A stretch of DNA of 64,000 nt from Antedon mediterranea (lineage: Eukaryota; Animalia; Echinodermata). The stretch's first letter is position 1, and the number at the start of each line of letters is the position of its first letter. The translations under genes were made by a program, and so were the position numbers. Shown piece by piece: positions 7,005-63,742 of the stretch. The notes under the pieces are model-generated. The model had not been told where the DNA came from, searched no databases, and worked only from the letters and a program-made list of their open reading frames with translations. Location of the stretch: contig NC_092680.1 of assembly GCF_964355755.1 (NCBI RefSeq), positions 15,943,045 to 16,007,044 of the forward strand, given 5' to 3'.

Positions 7005-8654
7005 ATGGTGACAGTAAGGACCGTTATCGGAATAGTTGCCGTTAATTTTATATTTTTAGCAGAATGTACTGTCTTTATCAAATTGGGAGGCCAGGATTTG
7101 ACAGTCACGCATGGAAAGAATGTTTTGCTTTACTGTCGAGCACCTGAAATCACCACACTAAAGATGTTGCTAGGAAAGCAGGGACAAGTTAATTTATCAC
7201 TTAAGGATACAACATGGAGTCGTTTTATGTTCATGTGGAACGGAATTAATAAAGGATTTGGACTGATACCTATTTCAAGACGTGAAACACAATGTCAATA
7301 TTTACTGAGGTTTATTCGCTCTATCGCTGGCACAGGTTCTGTTACGGTACTGTCAGCGCCTGAGGTCGGTTCCCCTTCCTGCACGATGGATATCCCATCA
7401 TCACATCTTCATGTTGGAGAAGAAGTCCGCTTAACATGCACTTCCAGTGGTGGTAATCCGCCAGCTGAATTGCAATGGTCTTCCGGAGGACGTCAAATGC
7501 AACAAATCGCAACTAGAAAGTCAACCATAACCCATTTACTAGAACCACCTGATAACGGCGCTGTATTCACTTGCACTGCGCGTAGTCGCGCAATGGATCG
7601 CCCACGCAGCTGCAGCCTGCAACCACTAAATATCCAACCAACAGTAAGTATTAAACCTGTTACTAATTTGGTGGAAGTTGAAGAAACGGCCATGTTTAGA
7701 TGCAAGGGTGATGGTGTCCCTCGGATTGAAAGTTACAAGTGGTATTTTGGTGACCAGTTAATAACATCGACGACAGGTAGAATAAGAAAAGTAGGCCGAG
7801 AGTTGTACATAGACGAAGTTTTTTGGCGGGATCATAACGTCATTGTTCGATGTATAGTATCAACACAAAATGGATTGACAGCTAACACGACAGGAGTTGT
7901 ACGAGTAGTTTATGATCTTGAACCAACAGCGCTCCATGCAGTACCAAATGGAGGAGGCGGATACATACCACCCATGCCCACGGACCATTCGAATACTAAA
8001 CAAGTTAGTAGCCTCGTAGTACTAATAGGGCTTGGAATAGCTGGATTATTATTTGGTACGGGTACAATTATGACATATATAGTCTATGTTAAATTATCTA
8101 ATAAAAAGGAGAATGAAAGATATGGGCCTTCACTATTAAGAAGAGGTCGTATTGATAAACAGGCACAGACTAGTACGAGGCATCGAAGTAAAACGTCGGT
8201 GTTTAGCATTTCTTCAGCATCAGGTGGCATTAACAACACTATGCAATCATCAACTCAAATAGAAGAGAAACCCAGGAATAGTGCGTCATGCCGTCTTGAA
8301 AGAGTTCCAAGTGAGGCATATAAACGAGGACAGAGTTTAGTAGCAATAAACGAAGAAGCGAGTTTGTCGTATGAACAGATAAATCATCCGGATGATGCTG
8401 GAAGTTCTTATTATGACTTTTCTGGAGAATATCTTCCTGATATTATTGATTACGATGATGTCTCTCTAGAATCTCAGCAAAGTCGTGATAATAAAACAGC
8501 TGACATGAATGACTTCTATGAAGCTTTGCGTCCAAATTCTGATTTTCTTGATGATGCGGACATCAATGAAATAATTGAAGCCGCCATGCGACGAGCATCC
8601 CTGACGCGCGATGGCCAACTATTTTACGTCAGTTCGAAAAGTTGGGCTCTTTAA
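7005..8654 (+). CDS. Intronless Ig-superfamily type-I receptor A (atypical D1, C2, Ig, TM, Tyr-motif tail)
   Basis: Signal peptide MVTV..LAEC. D2 LTCTSSGGNPPAELQW..DNGAVFTC; D3 FRCKGDGVP..YKW..VRC. TM LVVLIGLGIAGLLFGTGTIMTYIVYV. Tail has LSYEQI, IDYDDV, FYEAL. Confidence 0.85.
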   Translation: MVTVRTVIGIVAVNFIFLAECTVFIKLGGQDLTVTHGKNVLLYCRAPEITTLKMLLGKQGQVNLSLKDTTWSRFMFMWNGINKGFGLIPISRRETQCQYLLRFIRSIAGTGSVTVLSAPEVGSPSCTMDIPSSHLHVGEEVRLTCTSSGGNPPAELQWSSGGRQMQQIATRKSTITHLLEPPDNGAVFTCTARSRAMDRPRSCSLQPLNIQPTVSIKPVTNLVEVEETAMFRCKGDGVPRIESYKWYFGDQLITSTTGRIRKVGRELYIDEVFWRDHNVIVRCIVSTQNGLTANTTGVVRVVYDLEPTALHAVPNGGGGYIPPMPTDHSNTKQVSSLVVLIGLGIAGLLFGTGTIMTYIVYVKLSNKKENERYGPSLLRRGRIDKQAQTSTRHRSKTSVFSISSASGGINNTMQSSTQIEEKPRNSASCRLERVPSEAYKRGQSLVAINEEASLSYEQINHPDDAGSSYYDFSGEYLPDIIDYDDVSLESQQSRDNKTADMNDFYEALRPNSDFLDDADINEIIEAAMRRASLTRDGQLFYVSSKSWAL

Positions 8655-11591
8655 TAAATGATAGGAGACTGAATTACTAATATGACTAAATTAATTTTGC
8701 AGTACACTGCTCTTTCCAAAATGAAGTAAAGTTGAAAATATATCGACGTTGTTGCTAAACGTCTTCGATTTTGTTTATTCGCCATGAACATCAAACATTA
8801 TTAGAAAAGAGAAGAGCGAGATTGATGTCACCCTTCCCCTATTATATTATTTACGGTAGTTTATTCGAAACGAATTATAATTTAGAAAATTTATGTGAAA
8901 TCAAAAATATTATTTTCTATTTCAAGAAAGCATTATGCTTTTGGTATACACTTCTTTCACTTTTTTGAACCCACTATTTGACCTTACATTTTTTGTCATT
9001 ACTGATTTTTAATCAAATTATCCCATAGGCTTAATATTTAAAAAATGTAATTTCGTTAATACTATAATACTAACAAGACAGCATTCAGACAAGTATACCA
9101 CCTTAAGGGAAATGTTAAAATTAGAATACGCGATAAACACACAACTTCCCTTCCTTCGTAACGGGATTTTCCGGTTATGAATATTAATTTTCTTTATTAA
9201 ATTATTTTAAATATGGAAAATGAAAAGATTTGTTTTTAAAGTCGAAGTATTCTGGAAATGACTTCGTTAAAATCTGAAAATATATGTATATTATCACCAT
9301 TTGTGCTATTAAGTAAAACAAAATTAGCAGCCGATGTTTATTGTTGCCAGTAAACATGATGGTATTATATTAGAGTACATTTGAAATGTACATTGTGGTT
9401 ATGTAAATAAGTAAGTAGCAGTAGTAACGTTATTCCAGTTCATTTAATATACTGTACAAACAATAAAGATACAGAATGGAAAAAGAAAATGCAAGCAAGA
9501 ACAACAAAAGTTTTAAACTTGTGGAAAAGAAAACAAAACATTATATATGTACACGATGCATGCAGGCGGGTCTTGCATTGGTGCGGGCACTCACTTGAAA
9601 CTGTAAAAATATTGATATATAAATAAAGCAAATACAATGTTGTTTTATGTGTAAGTGTGTGTTCATCACGTTATAGTACTGTAGCTTCAGATTTTAAAAA
9701 AATAATGGGAAACAAACATAAAAACGAACAATTACAAGGAATGATTTACCTCAAATGAGCTCGTCAACCCAATTTTAGGTTTCTTAAAAAGATATATTTT
9801 CAAAATTATTGGAAAAGCTGGATGTGGACCGCTGACTTCTTTTTTGTTGTTAAATAAAACATGTCACCATTTTAAACAGTTACAGCAGAATTTAAAAAAA
9901 AACACACACAGTTTGTCTAAATGGATTAGCAAACCGAAAGGTTAACATAATTATTCATTTTTTATTCATCATTATGAATAAGTTGAGTAATTTAAAATTT
10001 CATTTTAGATATATACATTTAATTACATGATTACTTATTAACTTTATTAGACCTTTTAATGTTATATGACAATTATGAAACATTTACTCTTTTAATCTTT
10101 TAAAATTGGCAAAGATCCATTTTGACGAAGATTGTGTGTGTATGATTTTAAAGGAAATGACGCTATTGAATCTAATTCGGCTGTCCCAAACAGGATGCTA
10201 AAATTCGATGAACCTGAAATTATTTAACGCAGCAATAATACAAATGTATGCTAGCTTTGGTTGAAAAGAATAGCCTAGCTCTACATTTTCTCTCACTTTA
10301 TATCAAAGCGAATACTAGGATAATCAAACTGGCAATTAAATATAATATACGGAAGTAGATGAATTTACTGAAAAAAGGGGAATTTAAAACAATGAGTATC
10401 ATGATGGGATATAAAGAACTCTAGTAGTGAGAACGATACCTTGTACTGATAATGTTTTGCTGAAACAATACAGTATATTAATTCGCACACAACTTGGCAG
10501 AATTCGTTTTAACCTCATAAAACAATTACCTACATTTTTAAATGCGCCTTTAGCAGTCTTGGGTGGTATGTGCGCTATAAAAATCCTGTTATTATTATTA
10601 TTATTATTATTATTAGTGTTATTATTATTATTACATATATATTATATTGTTTTATATAACACCTAAATAAATGCCTGTCATTTCATCCCAATCATAAAAA
10701 TTAGTTATTTGTGTAATATTAGTCTACTATTGAACTGCTGTTTACATAAAACACTTACTTTAAATTCTTACAAATAAATAGGTAGTAATTTAATGACTTT
10801 CGATATGGTGATGTGAATTTCTTTTATTACTATTATTATTATTATTATTATTTCGAATAATTTCAGTCCCTGGCATGGTCTCATGAACTCTGTTACGATG
10901 AAAATACCTATATTCATTATGGCTACGTTGTGTTTTAACAGGACATGAATAAGACCGTGGTCGTTCCGATACAGGTTTCCGCACTATCTATGACTCAAAC
11001 GTCTCTATTGCTCTAATAATGGTCTTTCTGTAAACCAGACTTTAAACAAAAAACCCTGTATCGTATTAGAATTAGTCCTCCCGCCTGTAAACTGTAATAA
11101 TACAGGTAGTTGTTATAATGAGATGTATTTATTAGAGATAGGAATATACATCCAGTTCCCTAGATCAATGGTCTTACTGTTGGTTAGTTGACTTCGTTTA
11201 AATTAATGTTATTTCATAGGCCTGTCATCGGATGGTATCATAGAACATTAAATGAAGGCAATATAAACTCATTACTGTATAACAAACACCACGGAAGACG
11301 TGTTTTCAAAACAATGGCCATGAATATGTTCAGAAACTGATTTATATGTTCTAATAATTATAATAAAAAAAAAGCACAAGAGAATAGCGTATTCATCAAG
11401 AAAATCATGAAATGAATCAACAGCGCCACCTACCAACACACAAATAACTAGAGAGGGCGATATGGTTTTATAAGTAAATAAAGTCAACGTATATAAGAAC
11501 TTCATCAAAGTAAGTAGGTAGGTCCATTTCATTTAAATTAATTATGTATTTTTTATTATTTTATTATCAGCTCAAAGTTTCATTTTTCCTT

Positions 11592-14453: not shown

Positions 14454-16283
14454 ATGATCAAGATGATGTATAAAGCAATATTATTGACTCTATCAGTGTT
14501 TCTTCAGCTAGCAAATGGAATCGATTTTCTAATAAGGCCTTCAAATAAGCGTGTACTTGTCGGTATGTCAGTTACACTACGGTGTTCTTTTTCGAATAAA
14601 GGTAGTGGTAATACCGTTTACTGGTATAGACCAGAAACAGAAAAATATATATCTAACAATGAGAATCTCTACACACAAATGCCACGGTATCAAATAATTG
14701 GAAACACGGGTGAGTACTCTCTTCAAATTACCAATATTCAAGTGACAGACGAAGGGGAGTATAGATGCGGATTCTTTAAGAATGGTATGTTTACTTATGC
14801 ACGAGCTGTTATTGTTGTACTGGTGACTCCGGCTATGGGAAACCCAAAGTGCTCAAAGCGCCCATCGTCAATGCTACGGCCTGGGGATTCTGTTAGTCTG
14901 ATATGTCAATCATCAGGTGGTCGTCCTCCAGCCTCGTTGCGTTGGTTCCGAGGTGATCAAGGTATGATCGGTACATCTCGAATATCCCCTAACGAAATTA
15001 TGACGGTTCTGCAACCGGGTGACAATGGAAGGAAATTTGTTTGCAAACTTACTCATGAAACGATAAACGCACAAAGAACTTGTAGCATTATTCCGTTGAA
15101 GATTTTACCTGTTGTTATTGTAAATCCTGACGCTCTGACCGTGGACGTCGGACAAGATGCTTCATTCCGATGTGACGCAGAGGGAATACCACGTATCAAC
15201 AAAATAACATGGTTAGTTAACAACACATTGGTAGTTAACGGAATGCACAACCGTTTCGTACTAAGACAAAACTCAATTGTTCTCATAATTAGGAACGCAA
15301 CGCTTATGGACGATAACACGGTTGTCACGTGTCGGGCCTCAACACCAAACGGTTTGATCGGCTCGGACACTGGGATATTATTTGTAATTAAGGGCTATAT
15401 ACCAAAGACTACTTTGGCAACGACTATAATACAGACAGGCGCATTCACTACAGATTTAGAAGAGAAAGATTATGTCAACGAAGACGGAAACAACACAAAA
15501 GAAATTTTAGGAACATTTTTTGGTGTAGTTTTAGCGTTCCTAATTGTTGCAACTGTTCTATTCATAACCGTTCGCTTGTGTGAGAAACGGAAAAAAGCCA
15601 ATGAAATGAATATGTCTCAGTTGCGAGGCAACGGCTCTGTGTATTCGATGACTAATGAATATGGCCCAGCACCGACTGTCACAGATCCCGATCCCAGTAA
15701 ATACAAAACCCTCGGAATCGAGGGAAAGTTACCGTCTGTTTATCAAAACCTGATCGAGAATACAACGAACCCGGCAGTTGTGTCCCAAATATCCGGATAT
15801 ACAAACGGAGGGCCAATAGTGGATAATTTAACAAGCACTGGACTGCAGCACTATGAAGTAGTAGTGTCAAAGAATGATTCACTTGATGATGAAGATATTA
15901 ACGATTATGAAACGCTAGGTCGTGATGGTAACGGTATCGTTGGCCGTGTTCCTCCACAGAGACGATATGACACTCCGGCTTCGGTGCTGTCTCCGATTAA
16001 CAACAATACCCATAATGCAGACATTGGAGAAACCAATGCTTTTGATGGTACGTACGAGATTCCAACTGCCGTCAAATCGCAAGGTCTTCGAAAATCAGAT
16101 ACTCTTGATAGTAAAGGCTATGTTTGTCCTAAACAACTTTATATTTCGCATTCTAAAGCAGATTCAACCGATAATTTATTAGAGAGTAGTTGTGACATTG
16201 GGGTACAGGATTATGTTGATATGGAAACAAAAACTCGATCAATTATATATCAACAGTCGATAGAATGTCTCGATCAAACATAA
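14454..16283 (+). CDS. Intronless IgSF receptor B (V-C2-Ig-TM, Tyr-rich tail)
   Basis: Signal peptide. V domain LRC..VYW..YSLQI..DEGEYRC; D2 CQSSGGRPPASLRW..DNGRKFVC; D3 CDAEGIP..W..VTC. TM ILGTFFGVVLAFLIVATVLFITV. Tail has YKTL, YQNL, YETL, YDTP, YEIP, YVDM. Start could also be a nearby downstream Met. Confidence 0.92.
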   Translation: MIKMMYKAILLTLSVFLQLANGIDFLIRPSNKRVLVGMSVTLRCSFSNKGSGNTVYWYRPETEKYISNNENLYTQMPRYQIIGNTGEYSLQITNIQVTDEGEYRCGFFKNGMFTYARAVIVVLVTPAMGNPKCSKRPSSMLRPGDSVSLICQSSGGRPPASLRWFRGDQGMIGTSRISPNEIMTVLQPGDNGRKFVCKLTHETINAQRTCSIIPLKILPVVIVNPDALTVDVGQDASFRCDAEGIPRINKITWLVNNTLVVNGMHNRFVLRQNSIVLIIRNATLMDDNTVVTCRASTPNGLIGSDTGILFVIKGYIPKTTLATTIIQTGAFTTDLEEKDYVNEDGNNTKEILGTFFGVVLAFLIVATVLFITVRLCEKRKKANEMNMSQLRGNGSVYSMTNEYGPAPTVTDPDPSKYKTLGIEGKLPSVYQNLIENTTNPAVVSQISGYTNGGPIVDNLTSTGLQHYEVVVSKNDSLDDEDINDYETLGRDGNGIVGRVPPQRRYDTPASVLSPINNNTHNADIGETNAFDGTYEIPTAVKSQGLRKSDTLDSKGYVCPKQLYISHSKADSTDNLLESSCDIGVQDYVDMETKTRSIIYQQSIECLDQT

Positions 16284-16865: not shown

Positions 16866-16954
16866 TTACGTTGCGTTGCGTCCAATAGTGGGAACCAAGT
16901 ATAATTATTCGTACAAGATTACTGTAATTGTTAAATTGCCTTCATTAACTATAA

Positions 16955-26253: not shown

Positions 26254-28068
26254 TTATTTTACACTGTTTCTTATTTCGGCATATTCATTGCCTCGCAATC
26301 TGAGCAAAACTTGCATTAATGTAGGTGAATCATACGGTTTTTCTTTAAATTCCAAATCTGCGTAAACTAAGACATTTTGCTGATGTATTTTCAACCGTCC
26401 AGGATGTGTTTTCCGTTTATCATCTTGTTCGGACATCGCTGCGAGACTCACTTTCCCAACTGAATCGCCTCTGACACGTCCACAGGTCACCGGATGTGAT
26501 TCACTCTGACACACAATGCTTTTAACAGAGCAATTGTTTGAACTATTTGTTGTAATATTGTTATATGACCCATCTTCAATTACAATTTTAGGCTTTATGA
26601 ACAGTTTTTTTTTCGATTTTGGTGATGGTTCTTCATCGATTGCTACTAAATCATAGAATGGTTCGCAATTACTTTTACCTGCTGTTTTGTTTTCAAGTGC
26701 AAATCTAACGCGTTTCTGTTCGTTTGGAGTTGACGAATTTCTATTAAGGTTTCGACTTATTCTTGCAAACAGTTGCATGAAACTAAATCTACCATCTACT
26801 GTTGAGGCATTTTGTAGGACTGCATCCGATTCTCTGGGCGGTGCATCCCTGCTGATAGATTGTTTTTTTTTTCGAATAATTATAACCGCAATTACAACCA
26901 TTGCCAATATAAGAACACCTCCTCCGGCTAATCCACTCCCCAGTTCAATATTGCTACGTAGTCTCCCCTTACTATCAGGTACATACGCGTTAGTAGTGTC
27001 CTTGTAGTATACAGATGTACTGTGGGTACGTGGAATAATGTTTTTAATTGTAGTGGTAGGCGAAGAAGGAATCACCACACTTGGGCTAGGCAAAGACACG
27101 TGTAATACAGCATGCGTCGAAACACGTCGTCTGGTGTCGGTAATAACTTCGCACATGATGCGGGTTTTGTCGTCACCGGGTTGAATATTTTTTATTTGTA
27201 ATATTTTACGTTCGTTTATTAACTCAACACGTCGACTAGTTAGTAACATATTGTTGGTAATTGACCAACTATAACGTGGTCGTTCGGTTGTTTTTAAACC
27301 TTGCACATTGCAGGTAAAACGGGCTTCCTCCCCTACTTGTGTTCTGAATATAGATGGCGAGATATGTACCTTTAACGACGCCTTTTGTGGGAAAATAAGG
27401 GGTACAATCCTACATGACTTATATTGACCTGTTATTAAGTCAGTAACGTTGCATATAAAAGCAACACCATAATCGTCATGTGATAAAATGAAATTATATG
27501 ACAGATACTGATCCCCAACTATGTTTACTAGTGTTGCTCCGTGTCTGCTCCACGTAATTTGTGTATTAGGGGTTGTTCCTGCCGAACCGGCATCACAATT
27601 CAAATCGACTGAATCGTAAGGTGCGATCAAGTCTAGCGATTGATCAGCGTAGCAATTGGGATGCACCTCCACCGTTGAGTCCCGAAACACATCTAATTTA
27701 GCTGATTGTAGGCTATGTACAGTTGTATTTCTAATGTATCCACATGTATACATCCCAATATCAGTCACTTGCACATCAACAATGTTAAGATCAAAAGTGT
27801 TACCCGATAAAGGTGTTACGGAATAGCGACTTCCAAGTTTAGAATCAAGCAGTCTATTAATCTGTCTATCATAGCTTAGTATTGTCTGCGATCCATATTT
27901 CCATATAACTAGTTCATTAGATCCTTTATCTGCAATTTCACAACGAAGTCGGACGATTTGAGACGGTGACGCAGCGAAGTGTGTAGGTCCTAATATAAGG
28001 CGGATGCCGGTACATTCACACATAACCAGAAACACACAGAACAATGTACAAATACTTGAAGTCTTCAT
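26254..28068 (-). CDS. Intronless IgSF receptor C (V-C2-Ig-TM, ITIM + ITSM-like tail)
   Basis: First ATG at 28068 (MKTSS; the ORF track starts at a GTG). V domain LRC..VIW..FDLNI..DIGMYTC, then two more Ig domains. TM GLAGGGVLILAMVVIAVIII. Tail has KRVRF, LVYADL, NEYAEI. Confidence 0.92.
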   Translation of the reverse strand: MKTSSICTLFCVFLVMCECTGIRLILGPTHFAASPSQIVRLRCEIADKGSNELVIWKYGSQTILSYDRQINRLLDSKLGSRYSVTPLSGNTFDLNIVDVQVTDIGMYTCGYIRNTTVHSLQSAKLDVFRDSTVEVHPNCYADQSLDLIAPYDSVDLNCDAGSAGTTPNTQITWSRHGATLVNIVGDQYLSYNFILSHDDYGVAFICNVTDLITGQYKSCRIVPLIFPQKASLKVHISPSIFRTQVGEEARFTCNVQGLKTTERPRYSWSITNNMLLTSRRVELINERKILQIKNIQPGDDKTRIMCEVITDTRRRVSTHAVLHVSLPSPSVVIPSSPTTTIKNIIPRTHSTSVYYKDTTNAYVPDSKGRLRSNIELGSGLAGGGVLILAMVVIAVIIIRKKKQSISRDAPPRESDAVLQNASTVDGRFSFMQLFARISRNLNRNSSTPNEQKRVRFALENKTAGKSNCEPFYDLVAIDEEPSPKSKKKLFIKPKIVIEDGSYNNITTNSSNNCSVKSIVCQSESHPVTCGRVRGDSVGKVSLAAMSEQDDKRKTHPGRLKIHQQNVLVYADLEFKEKPYDSPTLMQVLLRLRGNEYAEIRNSVK

Positions 28069-35885: not shown

Positions 35886-35915
35886 ATGAGGAAATCTGTG
35901 AGAATGAGAAAAAGT

Positions 35916-36717: not shown

Positions 36718-38061
36718 CTATAGATTGATTGTTTCTTGTTTCGCAAATCGGACTCGTCTTGTATTTGTTTTAGGTGTACGAGAATTACTGTTAAAACTCG
36801 GAAATAGAAGAGCAACTAAGCTACGACTCTTTTTGGTGGAACAATCATGCGCATCTACACCAGAATAAACGTCATTAATGGAGCGTCGTGCGGGAGTAGA
36901 TCTTTGCTTGTTTCGTCTACAAACCATTAAGTACACAATAGTTATTGCAATAATAACAAATAGGGCAGTTATAACTAATGCAATTTTTAGTCCTACTTGC
37001 GTAATCTTTGTATCATCCTCATCTATTTTAGATGTAGTTTTCGGTGACGGAACATCATTACTTTGAATCTCATTTGGTGACGGAGATACGTATAATATTG
37101 AGTCTCTTGATCCACGGCGACGACTTGCATCCGTCATAACTTCACATGTGAAGCGAGACCTGTCGTCGGTTGCTTTAATATTTATAATTTTTAAAGACCT
37201 ATGTCCATTTTGTGGTTGTGCTCGTTGGCTTATTATGAGGTCGGTATTAAGTATGGACCAACTGTATCTAGGTTTTTCGTACAATGAAAGACCGTGCGCA
37301 TTACAAGTAAACAGCGCTTCGGTGCCAACTGCGGTTGAGATTACGGCTGGTGTAATCGTAACAGTCAAAGGCCTACTTTGTGAAATTAAACTGTTAGGTA
37401 TTGTAATGTAACACATTTGGTGTTTCCGAGTTAGTAGGTTAGTAACCTTACACGTATACGTAACTCCAAAATCATCGTTGGTTAGGATAACTCTATGGGA
37501 CAGTGATGACAATTCGACCTGATTTAATAAAGTTTTACCAGACCGGCTCCACGTCAGTTCTGTGATTGGTGACGCTACCAAACCTGAATCGCAATTCAAA
37601 TCCAATGAAGCATGTAGTCTAATCCCTTCTAGTGATTGTTTAGTATAGCAATGTGGATAGTAATTGGCATTCGTTTCTTCCATTACCTCCAGCTTGGCTG
37701 ATTGCAAGTCAACGATTGTTTTGTTACTGATATAGCCACATGTATACATTCCGGTATCAGTCAAATGAACGCTCTTTATGACAAGATCAAAACTCCTTTC
37801 ATGTGAAGGTTTTATCGAATAGCGACGACCAACTTTGCGATCCAAAAGTGAGTTAATATGTCCGTCATAACTTAGAATAGTTACCAATTCAAACAGCCAT
37901 ACTACGGTTTCGTCGGAAACCTTCTCGGCGATTTCACATCCTAATCGAACTTGTTCGAACGGTGAAACTACCACATTAACTGGATCCAACTTTATGTCTA
38001 CACCACGACATATGAAGAAAATATTGAAAAGGCATATGAAAACAATTTTGGAAATATACAT
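36718..38061 (-). CDS. Intronless IgSF receptor D, closest paralogue of C, short tail without the ITIM pair
   Basis: First ATG at 38061 (MYISK). Shares TILSYD..IN.LLD.K.G.RYS, D.GMYTCGYI.N.T...LQSAKL and PRYSWSI with C. TM IALVITALFVIIAITIVYLMVC. Ends RRVRFAKQETINL*. Confidence 0.9.
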   Translation of the reverse strand: MYISKIVFICLFNIFFICRGVDIKLDPVNVVVSPFEQVRLGCEIAEKVSDETVVWLFELVTILSYDGHINSLLDRKVGRRYSIKPSHERSFDLVIKSVHLTDTGMYTCGYISNKTIVDLQSAKLEVMEETNANYYPHCYTKQSLEGIRLHASLDLNCDSGLVASPITELTWSRSGKTLLNQVELSSLSHRVILTNDDFGVTYTCKVTNLLTRKHQMCYITIPNSLISQSRPLTVTITPAVISTAVGTEALFTCNAHGLSLYEKPRYSWSILNTDLIISQRAQPQNGHRSLKIINIKATDDRSRFTCEVMTDASRRRGSRDSILYVSPSPNEIQSNDVPSPKTTSKIDEDDTKITQVGLKIALVITALFVIIAITIVYLMVCRRNKQRSTPARRSINDVYSGVDAHDCSTKKSRSLVALLFPSFNSNSRTPKTNTRRVRFAKQETINL

Positions 38062-39096
38062 TGCTTCAAGTATCAGACGTATAAACGGTAGTGTGTCACA
38101 ATGAAGACGGTAATATCTCTGTATAATAGACAATAAACCCACTGCTTACACTATATTAGAATAACAAGGCAATCAACCGAGTAAAACGATATATTGAAAA
38201 TCAGCACTGTGACAATGTATTTTTAATATTATTATACAAATCTTAGATATGCTACTATTTTATCGTGGATTGGCCATATTTACCCTTTTTACTCTCAGAC
38301 ACAGAATAATGCAAAAACAAAAGCCTCATTTATGAAACACATGGCTGTAGCTTGGTCATTTGATTGTTATTTTCATATAACGTGCAGTTCACTATTAGTT
38401 ATACTAAACAGTAAACATGATATTTACTGTTTGGTATTAATACTACTTGCACATTAAGGTTTTTAGTCTCTACAGCTCACTATGTCGGTCGGTCGGTCGG
38501 TTGGTCGGTAAACACTAATTTGAACACGCGACTGCAGCCATCTACAACAATTGAGATTGTGGTGCAACGGACAGTTGGTGACTGTTCAAAACTTATATAT
38601 AGAAAAACATACCTACAAGTGTGTCTGATGTATACGAACTGTTCTTTATAAATAGGCCTGCAATGATATCGTTTTCTTCATCTCTCGCCAAGAATCGAAA
38701 AAGATAGGAATTTTATTGAATTACAACACAATTTTCCAACTAAATAGGAGAAATTCTCGAGAATCTAGAGTGAATTTTGTATTTGTGTTTTGTATAAAGG
38801 ACACATCCCTAACCATATGATATGAATGCTCATATTATATATTTTCAAAAACAGGACTCGTTAAATCAATCTATATGTAATTTATTAATTCGGTTATGCA
38901 AATAAATGATAGACGAAAAAAGAAAAGTAATGGAGCACTGAATGAAAATAATGTTTCATGATTAATGTTGTAGAATAACATGTGGGCCATGTGTTCAAAT
39001 CATTCACTGCAGTTTCCTGTTTAATTTCCTACAATCATGTTCAACTTGCAAAACATTTAAACATCTACAAAATCTAAAAGTCATATTGGTCAGCAT

Positions 39097-39345
39097 ACAT
39101 TCGATATCACAAGGTTATATTCTCCAACGTCACGGTTACCTTCTATTGAAAGACGATTATCATTCACAGAAGCCAACATCCTACCATCAGAACTCAAGAA
39201 CATATTCGATGTTACAATGTTGCCAAAACAAAGAGTCTCCATGGGTCTTATTTTCAACTGCACATTCTAAAACTACAGTTTCTCCTTGGAAAACCTTAGC
39301 AGAATCTGGTCCATACCTGAAACTTATACATAAGGCTAGGCTAGC
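39097..39345 (-). pseudogene. Duplicated V-domain fragment of receptor E
   Basis: Matches 41330-41577 with about 10 substitutions and one 1-bp insertion (manual count). No start codon. Flanked by identical CATATTGGTCAGCATAC copies (39082-39098, 39345-39361). Confidence 0.92.
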
Positions 39346-40098: not shown

Positions 40099-41607
40099 TC
40101 AATTACTTGATTCTTTGATTCCTCCGTTATTTATAACATACAATGGGTTATTATGCATAGCAAGTTGGTCTTTATTTGCATCTTCTTCCTGTGTGTTGGC
40201 AGAATTCTCAATTTTACTGTCCTTCAGATGTTCCAAACGCCAACATCTGATAAGAAATATCACAAAAGTAATGACAACGAAGAAGCACACACCTGCAACT
40301 ACCAAGATGACTGCTACAGACAAATTATCGTCTGCAGACTGTGAATCATTGATTGGTGGAGGCACGGCATCATCATCGTCGTCGTCTTTAGGCGGAGTCA
40401 TTCTTACTGTCGTCTGTAGTTGTACAAGAGGCTTACTTGTGTCCGCTGGTATATCTGTTGATACTACTGAAGATGTACTATCTCTGGATGAAGTATTTAC
40501 CATCGGCGTTGGCTCATCATGAACATAAAGATGTGTTGCAAATGTCGAATTGTACTTTTTTGACGTGTCATCAAGCAATGTCGATGCGAGTGTTACTAAC
40601 GTTGATTTCTCTAATTCCGAAATTGATTCTGTTTGAAGTATGATGGTTGATAATACTGTTGTTTCTATTCCGTCTAGTGATAACACTATGCTGGCTTGAC
40701 CTTCTACGCCAGTTGTCGTTATACCAACGCATGTTACATTTTTACCATTATCGATTCCTTTCGACAGAGGAATAATAAAGACCTCCCCGCTTACAACATA
40801 GTCTTTAGAACCAGAACCAATTATATGTCTACCATCAACGAACCAACGTGTTTCTTTATACGACGGTAAAGCATTCTCTACATTACACATCAACGTGATT
40901 GGTTCTCCAACAGTATAGGTTACATTATCTGGAGATATCATCACTGTCGGTTCAATAGTCATTGGTGTTATAGAGCAGAATCTGGTATGAACCAAAGCTT
41001 CACCAGATGCCTCACAAACATAATCTATTCCATTGTCTTCTGGTAATAGCTTTAATATAATAAAAGCTGCGTTTATATCTTTTATAATTATAGAACCGTT
41101 GTTTTTCCAGGCTAGATCAGTCGGGGGACTTCCTCCAATAGATATGCAAACTAGACTGACTGTGTCACCGGGTTTAGGATCTACACTCTCCTTGTTAATG
41201 CTACATCTTGGATAGAAATCGTGTGGTGGGATTAACAATGTTAAATTGGCGTCCCGGAATACAAACACACTCCCTCCGTTGTCTGTCATTTGGAATCCAC
41301 AACGATAAAGTCCTCCATCAGGAGCATCAACATTCGATATCACAAGGTTATATTCTCCAACGTCACGGTTACCTTCTATTGAAAGACGATTATCATTCAC
41401 AGAATCCAAAATCCTACCATCTGAACTCAAGAACATATTCGATGTTACATGTTGCCAAAACACAAAGTCTCCAGGGGTCTTATTTTCAACTGCACACTCT
41501 AAAACTACAGTTTCTCCTTGGAAAACCTTAGCAGAGTCTGGTCCATACCTGAAATTTATACATACGGCTAGGCTAGCCTGACATAACACTAACCAAACAA
41601 TCTCCAT
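40099..41607 (-). CDS. Intronless IgSF receptor E (V-C2-Ig, Ser/Thr-rich stalk, TM, short NPxY tail)
   Basis: Signal MEIVWLVLCQASLAVC. V domain LEC..VFW..YNLVI..DGGLYRC; D2 CISIGGSPPTDLAW..DNGIDYVC. ~110-aa S/T-rich stalk. TM VAVILVVAGVCFFVVITFVIFLI. Tail has NNPLY. Confidence 0.92.
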   Translation of the reverse strand: MEIVWLVLCQASLAVCINFRYGPDSAKVFQGETVVLECAVENKTPGDFVFWQHVTSNMFLSSDGRILDSVNDNRLSIEGNRDVGEYNLVISNVDAPDGGLYRCGFQMTDNGGSVFVFRDANLTLLIPPHDFYPRCSINKESVDPKPGDTVSLVCISIGGSPPTDLAWKNNGSIIIKDINAAFIILKLLPEDNGIDYVCEASGEALVHTRFCSITPMTIEPTVMISPDNVTYTVGEPITLMCNVENALPSYKETRWFVDGRHIIGSGSKDYVVSGEVFIIPLSKGIDNGKNVTCVGITTTGVEGQASIVLSLDGIETTVLSTIILQTESISELEKSTLVTLASTLLDDTSKKYNSTFATHLYVHDEPTPMVNTSSRDSTSSVVSTDIPADTSKPLVQLQTTVRMTPPKDDDDDDAVPPPINDSQSADDNLSVAVILVVAGVCFFVVITFVIFLIRCWRLEHLKDSKIENSANTQEEDANKDQLAMHNNPLYVINNGGIKESSN

Positions 41608-45608: not shown

Positions 45609-47174
45609 TTATGGAATAACGACATCGACTTGAATAATGTGTTCAGTATTGTCTATAACACGTGGTGTGTTAGACTCTGTTATTTCTATGGGAAAGTCAG
45701 CAAATAAAATATCCTTTGATTGTAAGTTAAAAGTTGTGTTTGTTTCAATTTGGTCATTGACGTCATCAATATCGACAAGTTTGATTACCGTATCTGGAAC
45801 TTCCTCTTCGTCAAAAAATCCACTGTTATCTTCATCGATGTCTACCGGAAGAGCGGCAGCCTGTTTTCTAGCCATTGCTCTCATCTTTCGAATACGAGAA
45901 AAATTAGATGGTGATTGTTTTGGAGACAAGTTTGGAAGAATAAAAGTTACCCTTTTCTTTACTCCAGTAGCATTATAAGTCTGCGTGTCCGCTGTTCGCT
46001 TTATTATACTTTTCGTTTGTTTTCCATCATATACATCACGATGTTGGACTCGTTTTACAAAAGTGAAAAGAAAAACCAAGGCTAGTAAAAATACCGTAAT
46101 AGATAGAATCACTGGTAAGACTACATTATTTCCACTGGAAGAGGAATTTGGTACCTGTTTATCTACGACATCATAATCCTGTGTCGGAGATACTGATGGT
46201 CGAACTTCTGAGAGTTTGATTGTAACCGAGCCGTTAGCCTGTAGACCCGAAAGTGTTTTTACATGACACGAGATCAAAGTGTTGTTGTCTGATGGCATAA
46301 TACTTGGTATGACTATTCGTTCACCTTGCATTAATATTGCGAGCCTGTTCTTTGATTCTGTCATAACCCTTTCGGTATTCCAATACCAATGTATAGATTT
46401 GATTGTCCCTATAACATCAATTTTACAATGAAGTGTTAGCTCTTCATATAATCGAGGGTTAGGATCCGACATGTGTATTTCGACTGTTGGTAGAATAACC
46501 ATTGGAAGGACATAGCATGAACGTGGTTCAAGAAGTGCCAATCCGGTTGCTGAACATATGAATTCTACACCGTTATCATCCGTTGTTAAGGTGTGAGTTA
46601 CGGTAGAAATAGTGTTCATTGGATCTACTATCATCGTGTTATTTTTCCACCAAGAAAGCATAACTGGAGGTGTTCCACCAAAAGACACACAACCAAGTGA
46701 AATCGTATCCCCTGGTTTAAGGTATTCTATCGTTTGTGTTGACAAGCTGCATTGAGGGTAGAATGATGAAGGTGGACTCAATAACGAAATCCTGGCTTCT
46801 TGGAAAACAAATTCGCTTCGCGTATCATTTATAAAATAAAATCCACATTGGTAAGTTCCTGCTTCCTCTGTGTTTACGGCAGGTATCACCAAGTCAAACT
46901 CACCATCGCTGTGGTCGCCCGCAATGATGTACCTTCCAGCTCGAATATTGGGATAAATATTGCTATCGTAACTGATATACGTGTTGTGTTCAACAAGATG
47001 CCAGAATACAAAATTACCTTTCAGTTTATCATCCACTGCGCACCTAAGCGTAACTTGTTCGCCGTTGTGAACCTGGCTTGAGTCTGGACCCTGACGAAAT
47101 TTAATGGCGTATACAAATCCACCTTGGAACAGTAAAAATACACATAACCGTTTAAAATGAGCACCCCAGCACAT
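45609..47174 (-). CDS. Intronless IgSF receptor F (V-C2-Ig-TM, basic then acidic tail with RVxF)
   Basis: First ATG at 47174 (MCWGAH). Shares F-R-x-GPDS, FVFW, KPGDT and GGxPP with E. TM VVLPVILSITVFLLALVFLFTFV. Tail has KKRVTF. Confidence 0.9.
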   Translation of the reverse strand: MCWGAHFKRLCVFLLFQGGFVYAIKFRQGPDSSQVHNGEQVTLRCAVDDKLKGNFVFWHLVEHNTYISYDSNIYPNIRAGRYIIAGDHSDGEFDLVIPAVNTEEAGTYQCGFYFINDTRSEFVFQEARISLLSPPSSFYPQCSLSTQTIEYLKPGDTISLGCVSFGGTPPVMLSWWKNNTMIVDPMNTISTVTHTLTTDDNGVEFICSATGLALLEPRSCYVLPMVILPTVEIHMSDPNPRLYEELTLHCKIDVIGTIKSIHWYWNTERVMTESKNRLAILMQGERIVIPSIMPSDNNTLISCHVKTLSGLQANGSVTIKLSEVRPSVSPTQDYDVVDKQVPNSSSSGNNVVLPVILSITVFLLALVFLFTFVKRVQHRDVYDGKQTKSIIKRTADTQTYNATGVKKRVTFILPNLSPKQSPSNFSRIRKMRAMARKQAAALPVDIDEDNSGFFDEEEVPDTVIKLVDIDDVNDQIETNTTFNLQSKDILFADFPIEITESNTPRVIDNTEHIIQVDVVIP

Positions 47175-52654: not shown

Positions 52655-55009
52655 TCAGATATAATCGCTGATATCGCTACACTCCATGTTCATATAATCG
52701 CTGGAATCCACACAACTGATATCCGATGACCCTTTACTGAGTATATCATCAGATTTAGCTTTGTATGAATTATCCAACGCTTTATCTGGAACTGTTTCGT
52801 AAACATGGTGGCCTTTTTCACAACATGCTTGTGCTTCTAGGCCAACAATATCTGGCGCGCTTTCAGCTACACGTAAATTTGAAATAAAAGAGCCTGGGTA
52901 TACAATGTTATTTGTATATTCCTCGTATGGATTATTCTTAGGGCAACTTTTAGTACGTCTTAGCCGCGACCAACACGTAACAGATGCCCTTCGTGGTAGC
53001 ATGGTATGATTGCTATTTTGAACATTGTCTTCAGGTATTGAACCGAAGAATTGGCCTGGATATGGCTCGTTTAGAGATAGTTCAGTTTCGAAGTCAACAT
53101 CATAAAGCTCAGCCGACGTTAGGTCATCACACTTTACCGGTATCAGGAGGCGTCTTTCAAGATTTCCCAATCCACCAGATCGATAGTTTTTATTGTTCTT
53201 TTTTACTCGAGCATATGAAGGGCATGTGCTTCTTGAATGCTCATCACAACCACACGGAGAAGGATTACGAGACCATTTCTGTGGTTTCTTTGAGCAACAA
53301 TTGTCTGATACCTCTGGAGTTATGACGAATGATGTTCTGTCGGGTATTTGGTAATATATCTCATCTGGTTCGGGTAGTAGGTTGTCAGTCGCTTCACTAC
53401 TAGAACGAACAGATAACTCAGTACCACAGTACAACATATCATCATCACATGGTGGTGGACTAGATTGTGTCTGGTAAATTCCATCAGGAATCTCTGAGTA
53501 CAGATCCGGCGCTATTAACCGCGTTGGTTTAGGAGGCAAAGGAGGTGCAACTAAGCCTGACGCCTCGTGATGATGAGATTCAAACATAAACGAATTGTCA
53601 TTCCCATCGATAAGCGGATCAAGTATGTCATCCTCGTTTAAAGACGGATTACATTCGTTGGTCGTCAACAAACTTTTAAAATCAATATCGTTGAATAGCT
53701 CGGCATATACAACATTGCAGTGTGATATTCCTCCACTTACAGATGGAATCAATCTTCCAGAGCTACGACCTCTTCGAGTTGTTATATCAGGTAGGTCAAG
53801 AGATGCAGGTTTCTGATTACATGCAAACATTAACAACGTACCAGCTATAAGTATCAAAATACAGATTGTAATAACGGACGCAATGACCGCGAGTAAACTA
53901 AATCCAAACGCCTTAATTGGTTTATAGCCATCCTCTTCTATAATTATCTTATCTGTTGCTGATGATGATGCTGTAATTGTTGTCCTCGTTAGTTGTGTTT
54001 TTGAGGGGGCATTAGTATGACGGTGTATATTCGTATATTGATCACTTACTGTCATTGTTGTACTGGCAACTGCATACAGACCAGAACTAATGTAAGCCTG
54101 GCATACAATAGTCGATTGATTATCAGCAATATCAACACCACGAACCTTTAAAGTTCGCCCATCCCCAATCAAATCATATTTCATAGGATAGAAGATTTCC
54201 TGATTTATAACGTATCCATCGTGTATCCAATTATACTTTACAATAGTTGGCAAACCTGATGCATTACAGACAAACGTAATGTCATTGTTCACCGTTATTT
54301 CTGGTAGCCTGGGTGATATTTCAGCAGTAGGATAAATATTCATTGGTTTTATAGAGCAATTATGCACATCTAGCGTCACCGGATTAATCTCAGTACAGGT
54401 AAAAATACGCCCGTTATCAAAAGGTGTTAACATGATCTCCGTTACGTGCCAACCATACTGAAATCCGGTTAAGTCTTTTGTTCCATTTTGCCATTTTACT
54501 ACCAAATTTTTACTGGCACTTGAACAGTTAAATAATACTCTCTGGTACGGATTTAATGGTGGGTCTAAGTTGTGTGAACTACATATTGGAGTCTTCGTTC
54601 CAACCTCTAAAACTGTAAGTTTGGCTCTACCCGATTTTCCAAAATTTCCTGCCGCAGTCGACATTTCTCTTGAAAAATAACATTCAAAAAATCCTTCATC
54701 AGATTTAGAAACATTTTTTATTTGTAGTTTATACTGACCTGCAACATCACTAATAATATTACATCTTTTATCAAATCCTGTTTTGTAGCTAAATACCTTG
54801 ATGTCAACACTTATAAAACGCGTTCCATTGAAAACCCATAGTATTTGACTAGCCCCCTTCGAAGCAACAATACATTCGAAAGTTACCGTATCACCTTCAT
54901 ACACAGTTTTATCGTCAGGACCTTTCCGTAGTACAATCGCGTCTAGAGACAGTACTTTTAAAAGAATACAGATAAGTATAATCCGTACAAAACGTATATC
55001 CGACTCCAT
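52655..55009 (-). CDS. Intronless IgSF receptor G (V-C2-Ig-TM, ~390-aa multi-Tyr tail)
   Basis: First ATG at 55009 (MESDI). V domain FEC..ILW..YKLQI..DEGFFEC; D3 CNASGLP..YNW..IVC. TM FSLLAVIASVITICILILIAGTLLMFA. Tail has VVYAEL, PPLPPKP, YQIP, YETV, YMNM. Confidence 0.92.
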   Translation of the reverse strand: MESDIRFVRIILICILLKVLSLDAIVLRKGPDDKTVYEGDTVTFECIVASKGASQILWVFNGTRFISVDIKVFSYKTGFDKRCNIISDVAGQYKLQIKNVSKSDEGFFECYFSREMSTAAGNFGKSGRAKLTVLEVGTKTPICSSHNLDPPLNPYQRVLFNCSSASKNLVVKWQNGTKDLTGFQYGWHVTEIMLTPFDNGRIFTCTEINPVTLDVHNCSIKPMNIYPTAEISPRLPEITVNNDITFVCNASGLPTIVKYNWIHDGYVINQEIFYPMKYDLIGDGRTLKVRGVDIADNQSTIVCQAYISSGLYAVASTTMTVSDQYTNIHRHTNAPSKTQLTRTTITASSSATDKIIIEEDGYKPIKAFGFSLLAVIASVITICILILIAGTLLMFACNQKPASLDLPDITTRRGRSSGRLIPSVSGGISHCNVVYAELFNDIDFKSLLTTNECNPSLNEDDILDPLIDGNDNSFMFESHHHEASGLVAPPLPPKPTRLIAPDLYSEIPDGIYQTQSSPPPCDDDMLYCGTELSVRSSSEATDNLLPEPDEIYYQIPDRTSFVITPEVSDNCCSKKPQKWSRNPSPCGCDEHSRSTCPSYARVKKNNKNYRSGGLGNLERRLLIPVKCDDLTSAELYDVDFETELSLNEPYPGQFFGSIPEDNVQNSNHTMLPRRASVTCWSRLRRTKSCPKNNPYEEYTNNIVYPGSFISNLRVAESAPDIVGLEAQACCEKGHHVYETVPDKALDNSYKAKSDDILSKGSSDISCVDSSDYMNMECSDISDYI

Positions 55010-56559: not shown

Positions 56560-56755
56560 TATTTATACTGCGTAACCTCTTCAGTCGAAGACTGGTCTCC
56601 CAGAGGGCCCAGCTGGTGATCAGTGGCTGTGACGTACTAATACACCGGGGTAACCAACTCCCTACTCGTCTCGAAAGATGTACTAGGTTCTTTAAAGTGC
56701 ACACGAGCTAGATGTGTACACTGGACCTACGGTTTATAGTCCTTATCCGAGAGGT
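56560..56755 (-). mobile_element. SINE fragment, Nin-domain-like; related remnant on + strand at ~39673-39920
   Basis: Minus strand GTGTGCACTTTAAAGAACC..GACGAGTAGGG; the 39.7-kb copy has an A-box-like start plus TGTGCACTTTAAA and GACGAGTAGGG. Confidence 0.55.
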
Positions 56756-57234
56756 TACTCTCAAACTAATACAAAATGGACTTATTGTTATGTGTATAAA
56801 GTCTAGAAGTTGCCAATGTTTACAATTTAACAATATGTATACAATTTACGTACATGTGTTGCAAACATTAACATGTATAAACAGCTTGCATGGTTATTAA
56901 TATAAACAATCTGTAAAGTTTAAATTTAAATTATCGACTGTTTATAAACATTATTCTCCAAAGTTTCTAAAATGAACATGACTGATACTAATGTATTTTA
57001 CAGGTATCTGGATATAGAATGTTTTTCACAAATGATATGTAACGTTGCACCAACAACAATAACTCGATACTGTACAATGTTACACTAATTGGCCGACAAC
57101 ACAGTTTGTTCAGTGATATGTTATAGTTCAACAACAATGTATATTCAACAGAGGTTGTATACGGTAGTCAAAGATGAAGAATAAGTTTCACTATAATACC
57201 AAAGATAAAGCATGAGATGAATCATGATACGAAA

Positions 57235-57873
57235 TTAAGTGTCACGGCGAAGCATTGCCCGACAATCCCATGTATCTCCAAACTCTTCAGTATCATCTAC
57301 AATTAAGCTTGAAACTATTTGTCCTGTAGTAATATCAATCACAGATTTTCTGTAAAGTCGAGGAACAGCATAGATATTCGAATCCCTGTTACTACCACTT
57401 GCCTCCAGTTCATCGGTATTATTTTCCATGATTCCGCTGTTATTTTTAATATCAATTTCACTGTAATCAATACTACGACTCTGCCAATATATCGCAATCA
57501 CGATACCAACTAAAAGTAAAATTCCACTCAAAAGTCCAATAATAGAAAACGTATCGAAAAAGTGTTTAGACGATTTACCAGATTCTTCTGTAGGTTCAGC
57601 TGAAAGTTTTGATATAATGTTCTTCTCTGTTGATCCTTGCAAATCAGGGTCCAGGCTGCTTGTATCTGAAATCGTTGCCATTACTTCAGTCCCAGTTTGA
57701 CTAGTATAAGTTTGAGGAATAGTCTGCAACAATTGCTTCAATTGTGATCTGTCATGCAAATCAATAAATACATTGCGTTCCTCAATATGTTTCTCACCGT
57801 ATGTTGTAGCAACAAACACAGTAATATGTATAAAACATAAATACATACACACATGCAAACGAGAAGCATTCAT
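57235..57873 (-). CDS. Ig-less type-I membrane protein H1 (adaptor-like)
   Basis: ATG at 57873 (MNASRL). Signal peptide; ~80-aa Cys-free ectodomain; TM FSIIGLLSGILLLVGIVIAIYW; tail has NIYAVPR. The frame is conserved with paralogue H2 despite indels. Confidence 0.85.
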   Translation of the reverse strand: MNASRLHVCMYLCFIHITVFVATTYGEKHIEERNVFIDLHDRSQLKQLLQTIPQTYTSQTGTEVMATISDTSSLDPDLQGSTEKNIISKLSAEPTEESGKSSKHFFDTFSIIGLLSGILLLVGIVIAIYWQSRSIDYSEIDIKNNSGIMENNTDELEASGSNRDSNIYAVPRLYRKSVIDITTGQIVSSLIVDDTEEFGDTWDCRAMLRRDT

Positions 57874-57959
57874 GTTGAACAAAAGTCCTACTGAAAAGTC
57901 ACAAGAGTATAAAACTCAGGTAAGTTAGATTTCAAAATGACCCAAGTAAAAAGTAACAA

Positions 57960-59582: not shown

Positions 59583-60263
59583 TTAGTAATAAGTATCCTG
59601 ATGCAGCATTGAATGACGTTTCCATGTAGGCATAACATAACCAAAATCTTCAGAATCATCAACTATCAAGCTTGATACAATTGTTCCTGTCTTAACATCA
59701 ATCACAGATTTCCGGTAAACTCGAGGAATAGCATATATATTCGAAGTCCGATTACTACCACTTGTTGTCTCCAGTTCATCGGGATCATCTTCCATGATGA
59801 CGCTGCCGTGTTCGTCGTCACTTGTGACGCTGCCTTGTTCAACGTCACGTGTGTCACTTAGATCAATATCAATATCATTACGATTCTGCCAATATATCGC
59901 AATCACGATACCCACTAAAAGTAAAATTCCACTCAAAAGTCCAACAATAGAAAACGCATCGAAAAGGTGCTTTGATGATGAGATGAATTCTGTTGGTTCA
60001 GCAGCATTAAGTGGATACATCGTGTTTCGACGTCGTCTCAAAAGAGAATCCTGGTTATATGTGTCTGGAACCGTTGCCATTACTTCAGGTTGACTAGTTG
60101 TAGTTAGAGAAACTGCTTGTAAATTGTGTTTCAATTGTGATCTTTGTGTATCGATGTATACATTGCCTTCCTCAATATGTTCATCACCGTGTATGTGAGC
60201 AGCAAATACAATAACTTGTATAAAACATAAATACATACACACACTTAAACGAGAAGCATTCAT
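59583..60263 (-). CDS. Ig-less type-I membrane protein H2, tandem paralogue of H1
   Basis: ATG at 60263. Near-identical signal peptide and TM to H1; RRRR in the ectodomain; tail NIYAIPRVYRKSVID..TG.IVSSLIVDD. Confidence 0.85.
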   Translation of the reverse strand: MNASRLSVCMYLCFIQVIVFAAHIHGDEHIEEGNVYIDTQRSQLKHNLQAVSLTTTSQPEVMATVPDTYNQDSLLRRRRNTMYPLNAAEPTEFISSSKHLFDAFSIVGLLSGILLLVGIVIAIYWQNRNDIDIDLSDTRDVEQGSVTSDDEHGSVIMEDDPDELETTSGSNRTSNIYAIPRVYRKSVIDVKTGTIVSSLIVDDSEDFGYVMPTWKRHSMLHQDTYY

Positions 60264-62947: not shown

Positions 62948-63742
62948 ATGTCTTTACTTTACTTATGTATTTTTGTATTATATTCTGGAATTTACAATTG
63001 CAATGCTGCAGCATTGACAACGAAGCAACCGTTATACGAACGAGTTCAAGAGAAGATTGTGAAAACATTCGGAGACACTGTTGTATTGCACTGTAGTGTA
63101 AATCCTGCAATTGTCCACAGCACACTAATACAATGGGTCTTCGTAACTAACAACGACGAAGTGCTTACACAAGGAAAATTTCTGCAAACTTTAAATGTTA
63201 ACAAGAGATCTCGATATTCTGTGAGTGTAGATAACAATTTCCATCTACAGATAAAAAACATTCAATCAGAAGATGTGGGAACGTACATTTGTAGGTCAAT
63301 GTTCAGCATGGCAAGTTATGAAACTATTGCGACAAGGGTGCTTTTTGCAGACAATAAACAGCACAATGAACCACCAGTTTTAGAACAAACACATCAACAT
63401 CCTGCTAAACCATCAGAAGCACCAAAAGAAGAAGAAAGGATAACAGGACAATCCAGTGGACGAGAAGATGAAGAATCGCCAAAAGGAAGCAAACATTATG
63501 ACGCACTCTCTGTGTTTGGTCTTTTATGTGGAATCGCTCTAATAGTTGGAATTGTTGGATCAATAGCATGGAAGAATGGAAGGAAAAGTGGTAGAAAGAA
63601 TGTCGAGAAGACGACTGATGATGAACCTACAAAAGCTAGCTTGGCAGATTCAACGCGCAAAATACAAGTACCCAATGTGCGAATGATGCGGGGGTTAGAC
63701 AGCGACATGGAATGTAATAAAGCGAACGCGTACAGGTATTAA
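62948..63742 (+). CDS. Intronless single V-domain type-I receptor I
   Basis: First ATG at 62948 (MSLLYL). V domain LHC..IQW..RYSV..FHLQI..EDVGTYIC; charged stalk; TM LSVFGLLCGIALIVGIVGSIAW; short tail ending AYRY. Confidence 0.9.
   Translation: MSLLYLCIFVLYSGIYNCNAAALTTKQPLYERVQEKIVKTFGDTVVLHCSVNPAIVHSTLIQWVFVTNNDEVLTQGKFLQTLNVNKRSRYSVSVDNNFHLQIKNIQSEDVGTYICRSMFSMASYETIATRVLFADNKQHNEPPVLEQTHQHPAKPSEAPKEEERITGQSSGREDEESPKGSKHYDALSVFGLLCGIALIVGIVGSIAWKNGRKSGRKNVEKTTDDEPTKASLADSTRKIQVPNVRMMRGLDSDMECNKANAYRY

Follow-up and report, generated by a model that had tools for sequence, protein, structure and literature searches.

What kind of system is encoded at a crinoid locus where ten intron-free membrane-protein genes stand side by side? 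The locus lies in a 64,000-nucleotide stretch of Antedon mediterranea contig NC_092680.1 (positions 15,943,045 to 16,007,044, here called the window), where the genes, g1 to g10 in window order, occupy 57 kb. The original prediction, made from the sequence alone, took them for an invertebrate immune or self-recognition receptor complex that had expanded independently. We find a real, conserved cluster of an already known family, the echinoderm KirrelL family, whose sea-urchin member KirrelL makes skeleton-forming cells fuse, in an arrangement that we did not find in the literature. Its products likely signal at contacts between cells, and a fast-evolving immune complex is the less likely interpretation. 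The specific reading that we prefer, at a probability of about 0.55, is an old array in which intronless KirrelL-family contact receptors stand in tandem, together with three shorter derivatives, and act in mesodermal (most likely skeleton-forming) crinoid cells.

Twelve open reading frames (ORFs) in the window start with ATG and encode at least 200 amino acids (aa). Two are reverse-transcriptase ORFs and the other ten are the cluster genes, each a single ATG-to-stop ORF for a type-I membrane protein with a predicted hydrophobic N-terminal signal and one 21-residue transmembrane (TM) segment; the ten single-ORF type-I membrane genes and their coordinates were as predicted beforehand. Pfam immunoglobulin (Ig) models matched eight of the products, and neither g8 nor g9. 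By ectodomain, g2 to g7 have an intact V-C2-I arrangement, g1 an atypical first domain followed by C2 and I, g10 a single V domain, and g8 and g9 no Ig domain. Among themselves, g1 to g7 are 21–40% identical by BLASTP (E 1e-7 to 1e-100) and can be aligned across three domains, in which six Ig cysteines are invariant and domain 2 has an extra pair of cysteines. A V-C2-Ig ectodomain common to these seven had been predicted, and the three-domain alignment bears this out except for the first domain of g1, which is not a normal V-set; the sequence signature ascribed to most of them is patchier, with GGxPP in 4/7 and DNG in 5/7.

That the coding sequences of g1 to g7 are intronless is indicated by their single ORFs and by end-to-end alignment with counterparts elsewhere; for g2 and g7, deposited protein records identical to the ORF product and colinear RNA-like contigs agree. 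The contigs come from a run of a separate study (X1) that we took as RNA by guess only. They are colinear with g7 to g10 and with the greater part of g1 and g2 (a single contig spans g7, and likewise g10), they begin 51–54 bases upstream of the ATG in g8, g9 and g10, and they leave uncovered several unique intergenic bins that DNA runs do cover. This pattern fits unspliced coding regions in putative transcripts. No contig for g6 was among those listed, which is no evidence of silence.

Relatives were sought with a profile of 49 positions at the junction of domains 2 and 3, built from g1 to g7 only. Profiles of the whole ectodomain or the whole of domain 2 had been dropped because titin-type proteins scored above everything, a problem that the junction profile avoided; it matched 117 of 1.84 billion protein representatives. 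From 121 identifiers, 54 relatives were kept (family hidden Markov model (HMM) score of at least 140, full ectodomain cover, at most 800 aa), the window's own two records, fragments and multi-domain proteins being dropped. Over roughly 400 residues compared by eye, P0028 agrees with the published Aj-KirrelL and P0015 with the published Aplc-KirrelL (as far as the sequences are shown in PMC8903837); also by eye, KirrelL-like proteins were recognized in P0012, P0017 and P0022 and Kirrel2L-like ones in P0105 and P0093.

The KirrelL/Kirrel2L-like matches align with g1 to g7 at E 1e-14 to 1e-52 and 23–37% identity. The family HMM gave 245–280 bits for six of the KirrelL/Kirrel2L-like matches and P0093, against 67–90 for nephrin-like proteins. 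Two quickly built trees, one with 66 rows and one with 32, placed the window genes and the KirrelL/Kirrel2L-like proteins on one side of a branch and the nephrin-like proteins on the other, with a Shimodaira-Hasegawa-like approximate likelihood ratio test (SH-aLRT) value of 100; the larger tree held 61 three-Ig rows (the 54 relatives and g1 to g7) and five nephrin-like rows, with vertebrate KIRREL and CADM not included. The extra domain-2 cysteine pair, a diagnostic devised here rather than published and with one of its two cysteines inside the search profile, was present in 61/61 three-Ig rows and 0/5 nephrin-like rows, and predicts an additional disulfide in that domain. By these sequence criteria, g1 to g7 belong to the intronless echinoderm KirrelL family, apart from nephrin-like proteins. 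The window genes sit on separate deep branches, and an approximately unbiased (AU) test does not reject a single, crinoid-only clade for them (p 0.236).

In the sections available of PMC8903837 (Khor and Ettensohn 2022), skeletogenic cells need KirrelL in order to fuse, adult skeletogenic centers express it, kirrelL is intronless in all echinoderms examined, with an origin by retrotransposition proposed, and Kirrel2L, Hypp1164 and IgTM are related Ig proteins specific to primary mesenchyme cells. The Anneissia gene, Aj-kirrelL, is listed there under NW_022748342.1. Expression of kirrelL also extends to regenerating brittle-star skeleton (PMC7814545, in part). We did not identify Hypp1164 or IgTM among the profile matches. 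KirrelL and Kirrel2L resemble g1 to g7 in signal peptide, V-C2-I ectodomain, stalk and TM segment, the lack of introns being stated in PMC8903837 for kirrelL; in domain 2 they also have the extra cysteine pair and a DNG..C..C..P pattern. What sets the window apart from KirrelL is an array: seven deep paralogues, a one-V gene and two Ig-less genes. Neither a cluster of this kind nor an analysis of the tails was met with in the sections consulted. Three further matches (P0007, P0008 and P0009) are 1513–3688 aa long with 7–17 repeats of the domain 2–3 junction, which suggests giant tandem-repeat members of the family.

The cluster is old. Word-based searches returned one close relative each in Anneissia japonica for g2 (XP_033121855.1, 64% identity), g6 (XP_033121828.1, 51%) and g10 (XP_033121857.1, 56%), one of them adding a weak catfish match, and the profile search gave full-length counterparts for g1 (P0013, 70%), g3 (P0024, 53–55%), g5 (P0020, 48%) and g7 (P0014, 54%). 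Seven of the ten genes hence have a one-to-one full-length counterpart at 48–70% identity; for g4, g8 and g9 none was found in searches whose reach depended on shared words, on length and on clustering at 50%, and this does not amount to absence. The cluster is likely syntenic in Anneissia, as judged partly from accession numbers and not from Anneissia DNA. Branches between paralogues are several times longer than distances to counterparts. The gene g4 groups with g3 and P0024 (SH-aLRT 100), g3 and g4 being 40% identical overall and 41–54% per domain.

Nor is the V domain the part that evolves fast, on these alignments. Domain 1 is 64–80% identical to counterparts (g1 80, g2 65, g3 69, g5 72, g6 65, g7 64 and g10 65%), against 51–77% for domains 2 and 3; in five of the six three-domain pairs no other domain exceeds it by more than one point, g2 being the only pair in which it is lower. 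Polymorphism was read from two other samples with one contig haplotype each, covering g1, g2 and g6 to g10 and leaving out g3 to g5. Run X1 differed from the window at 3/3733 letters in g7, at none in g8 and g9, at two in g10 (both 3' of the stop), at 16/2136 in g2 (at least three inside the ORF) and at 14 of about 1700 in g1; a DNA contig of run X2 covers the whole of g6 with no difference. Allelic differences over these genes thus amount to about 1% or less. The rows compared, 40 out of 241 in one difference table and 40 out of 90 in the other, include at least 17 coding differences; eight of these 17 alter a residue, none of the eight in domain 1.

These numbers bear on whether the cluster might be a polymorphic locus for allorecognition, as are Hydractinia Alr and Botryllus fuhc/FcoR, a reading that we regard as very improbable. 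The resemblance is of pattern: in the accounts consulted in part (10.1101/2022.03.04.482883 for Alr; PMC12582321 for FcoR), those systems too are clustered IgSF genes with alignable heads and unalignable tails bearing both inhibitory (ITIM) and activation-type (ITAM) immunoreceptor tyrosine-based motifs. Their genes, however, consist of several exons, undergo alternative splicing, are highly polymorphic and encode Fn3-like or Sushi domains, whereas the window genes are single-ORF, have clear counterparts in another crinoid and show few allelic differences in the two samples; Alr orthologues were initially not found outside Hydractinia, according to the portion consulted of 10.1101/2022.03.04.482883. 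Given 7/10 one-to-one counterparts, a V domain that is not fast, little allelic difference and no charged TM residue, the independent expansion seen in the original prediction, and fast evolution with it, find no support: the observations that the prediction itself had named as speaking against it, here one-to-one orthologues, low polymorphism and a published description of the family as adhesion or fusion proteins (PMC8903837, as far as available), have largely been made.

The tails of the three-Ig genes are 49–388 residues long; five of the seven measure 148–388 aa, four of these are tyrosine-rich, and the C-termini differ. With ITAM and ITIM consensus patterns taken from 10.1101/2022.03.04.482883, the ten tails contained seven ITIMs, against 3.0 expected (P 0.03), and a lone ITAM-like motif that is by itself within chance (P 0.12). 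Yxx[LIVMP] motifs numbered 28, against 14.7 in shuffles and reached by 0/5000 of them, and RVxF motifs three, against 0.3 (P 0.003). The prediction that most tails do not align and carry different motif sets therefore held for the diversified tyrosine motifs, which exceed chance, and needs correction for two pairs, as g8 and g9 align and g3 and g4 align as far as the RVRF motif; an invertebrate cluster of homologous Ig receptors with diversified tyrosine tails stands. The RVxF motif is juxtamembrane in g3, g4 and g6, in both available counterparts and also in P0093.

Tail tyrosines were kept in counterparts at 39/49 positions over seven pairs, and other tail residues at 32–63%. By gene, the kept fraction was 13/13 in g2 (P 0.003 at a 63% background), 8/9 in g1, 4/5 in g3, 1/1 in g5, 12/17 in g7, 0/2 in g6 and 1/2 in g10; both ITIM-type tyrosines of g3 are kept in P0024, and the NPLY of g5 in P0020. 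No alternative frame restores the two ITIM-type tyrosines that g6 lacks, and no remnant of a distal tail was found downstream of g4. Beyond the counterparts, 46 distant relatives with a TM segment carried 54 ITIMs in 31 proteins (shuffle mean 14, maximum 27) and ITAM-like motifs in six of the 46, against 0.6 expected. A C-terminal tandem ITIM-type module was present in 18/59 tails across deep branches, among them g3, the Anneissia orthologue of g6 and the Kirrel2L-like P0105; this spread suggests that the module may be ancestral. Several relatives with near ectodomains (P0018/P0023, P0025/P0026, P0056/P0075, P0050/P0053 and P0106/P0115) pair long with short, or differing, tails, some of the short forms perhaps being incomplete gene calls.

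Tails of this kind raise the question of an innate immune array, in which, much as with SIRP, Siglec or CD300, coelomocytes would sense conserved ligands of self or microbial origin through receptors of two signs, inhibitory (ITIM) and activating (ITAM-like), KirrelL having been co-opted for the skeleton. The ITIM and ITAM-like excess across the 46 relatives, the tandem module on deep branches, the loss of ITIMs in g6 and recent-looking expansions among the profile-search relatives all favor it. Vertebrate SIRP, Siglec, LILR, KIR, CD300 and NITR genes likewise form clusters with a V-type N-terminal domain, and g3 and g4 supply a tandem ITIM and a long/short-tail pair. Activating members of those paired receptors, however, carry a charged TM residue for coupling to DAP12 or FcR-gamma, and the group shows recent birth and death, near-identical ectodomains and an accelerated V domain. 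In the window a charged TM residue occurs in 0/10 genes, the paralogues are deep, at 21–40% identity older than the split from their counterparts, domain 1 is conserved, and the link to the vertebrate receptors is generic Ig similarity only. The characterized relatives are moreover skeletogenic, and one of them bears the same tandem ITIM module as g3: as the Kirrel2L-like P0105 has it, ITIMs here are no mark of immunity. Adult sea-star coelomocytes do show allorecognition (PMC9763293), with no receptor named in the part available. On balance, an immune role in coelomocytes is lowered to an unlikely one. A broader version, which we hold to be slightly less credible still, would make the KirrelL family a large phylum-wide intronless ITIM/ITAM family independent of vertebrates and the cluster a crinoid coelomocyte complex for reading self, with inhibitory g3-type and activating g2/g7-type receptors, tail-less decoys (g4, g6 and g10), Ig-less adaptors (g8 and g9), and KirrelL fusion as a co-option.

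The folds bring up a different use of such genes. An AlphaFold model of the g2 ectodomain has three beta-sandwich domains (mean predicted local distance difference test (pLDDT) 85.6), and Foldseek placed it closest to the ectodomains of DIP, IgLON and Necl-4 (TM-score about 0.5); neighbors in the Atlas were CADM, MCAM and lachesin, with no reliable family for g9, and the automated label, 'cell adhesion molecule 2-like', was of the nectin/CADM kind that had been expected. CADM/Necl, nectin, IgLON and DIP proteins also have the three-Ig V-C-I architecture of g1 to g7. Paralogues that bind one another selectively, as Dpr/DIP, IgLON or nectin/CADM proteins do, could wire nerves or pattern epithelia, and stable one-to-one paralogues would suit such a fixed code. 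We nevertheless find this doubtful, because the likeness of fold is generic (15–23% identity, with nectins, SIRP and CD22 close behind) and the sequence family is KirrelL. The long tyrosine-rich tails and the predicted extra domain-2 disulfide of g1 to g7 set them apart as well; CADM and nectin proteins have short tails with FERM- and PDZ-binding motifs, and DIP and IgLON proteins are anchored by glycosylphosphatidylinositol (GPI).

Under the contact-receptor reading that we prefer, the V domain at the N-terminus would engage a partner, like or unlike itself, on an adjacent cell, and Src-type kinases would then phosphorylate the tail, with an output that differs between paralogues. Motifs of these types generally have as partners SH2 domains, phosphotyrosine-binding (PTB) domains or protein phosphatase 1 (PP1), for which RVxF is a docking-type motif. 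The tandem ITIM of g3 might accordingly recruit a SHP-type phosphatase; the ITAM-like, YxxP and YxxM motifs of g2, g7 and g1 could recruit Syk/Shark-type kinases or adaptors; the NPxY of g5, PTB or endocytic adaptors; and the RVxF of g3, g4 and g6, PP1. These outputs would modulate actin, contacts made by filopodia, adhesion or fusion. An intronless founder followed by local DNA duplication would account for the gene structure.

Several observations weigh against this reading. No kirrelL orthologue is among the ten genes (the best is 31% identical to P0028, against 48–70% for true counterparts), and the KirrelL clade of the trees holds no window gene, so that the proposed function is carried over from paralogues with an identity of about 30%. 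A fusion function is known, in the literature as far as consulted, for KirrelL alone, and the KirrelL proteins of Anneissia and Acanthaster are not among the 18/59 with the tandem ITIM module. The tails show turnover: g6 is without both ITIM-type tyrosines, g4 is truncated, g8 and g9 have lost the Ig head, and the broken copy of g5 is of recent date. Pairs of long and short tails with close ectodomains (P0023/P0018 and P0025/P0026) resemble paired immune receptors. The Alx1-type palindrome TAATNNNATTA occurs 12 times in the window, against 9.4 expected, and is not enriched.

KirrelL, known as the lone fusion gene of the skeletogenic network, is now placed in a large ITIM-rich family of 54 three-Ig relatives and the seven genes of the window. 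The ten-gene crinoid cluster offers candidates for the partner and the signaling route of KirrelL-type fusion, and equally for receptors of echinoderm self-recognition; it also cautions that invertebrate clusters of ITIM-bearing Ig genes need not be immune. In our literature search, which did not cover the possibly relevant Ettensohn and Dey 2017, we met with no account of this cluster, nor of ITIMs in KirrelL-family proteins.

Table 1. Genes of the cluster and a partial gene copy, with window coordinates.
Feature	Coordinates	Strand	Description
g1	7005..8654	+	549 aa; atypical Trp-less conserved first domain, C2, I, TM; 186-aa tail with 9 Tyr
g2	14454..16283	+	609 aa; V-C2-I, TM; 236-aa tail with ITAM-like YxxL-x9-YxxL (Y417, Y430), YxxP and YxxM
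g3	26254..28068	-	604 aa; V-C2-I, TM; RVxF in the tail, which closes with a tandem ITIM-type module (Y569, Y596) at the C-terminus
g4	36718..38061	-	447 aa; g3 paralogue; short tail stopping after RVxF, ITIM-less
Partial g5 copy	39092..39345	-	Frameshifted, 254 nt; 95% identical in nucleotides to the 5' part of g5, roughly codons 11-93
g5	40099..41607	-	502 aa; V-C2-I, then a long stalk rich in S/T, TM; NPxY in the 49-aa tail
g6	45609..47174	-	521 aa; V-C2-I, TM; tail with RVxF, without the two C-terminal ITIM-type Tyr of the Anneissia orthologue
g7	52655..55009	-	784 aa; V-C2-I, TM; 388-aa tail with 17 Tyr and PPLPPKP motif
g8	57235..57873	-	212 aa; Ig-less, short S/T-rich ectodomain, g10-type TM; tail with ITIM-like motif and YxxP
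g9	59583..60263	-	226 aa; g8 duplicate (57% aa, 73% nt identity); tail with YxxP motifs
g10	62948..63742	+	264 aa; one V-set domain (Pfam E 1.6e-10), stalk, TM; short tail without tyrosine signaling motifs

The first domain of g1 (7068-7355, +) is shortened, yet it is the most conserved domain of that gene in the comparison with P0013. It has no Pfam V-set match, no C-strand Trp and no D-x-G-x-Y, and was modeled with low confidence (pLDDT below 50, model residues 23–86); it may be a specialized or a non-Ig fold. Elsewhere in the pair, the TM segment is identical at 25/26 residues and the C-terminal KSWAL is kept. We considered whether g1 is a frameshifted or misassembled V gene and rejected this: no frame gives a V domain, the DNA run X3 is free of indels over 6986-7693, and the domain itself is 80% kept in P0013. 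At low depth, X1 has four gap letters somewhere within 6933-7245.

A TM and juxtamembrane segment is common to g8, g9 and g10 (E about 4e-9 and 4e-10 to g10). The TM segments of g8 and g9 are Gly-rich and GxxxG-like, and with their new tyrosine motifs the two seem to derive from a g10-type gene and to lack its Ig domain; from sequence features of this sort, they could be transmembrane adaptors.

Between g8 and g7, X1 contigs fill nearly the whole gap on both sides of a repeat (55312-57924, -), possibly as a long 3' untranslated region of g8, read-through or a long leader of g7. A possible splice acceptor lies near 55333, upstream of g7, with no joint there among those listed.

The remaining features of the window are repeats and mobile elements. 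Two long non-LTR retrotransposon ORFs with RVT_1 lie at 3068-4966 (+) and 30139-32370 (-), the second also with zf-RVT. High-copy repeats, judged by very deep contig piles, are present at 16560-17140, 45065-45452, 48326-48710 and 56546-56752, the first three with inverted-repeat structure. At 35724-35987, a 162-nt inverted repeat (93%) stands beside a tRNA-like sequence (35916-35987) and is possibly a tRNA-derived repeat.

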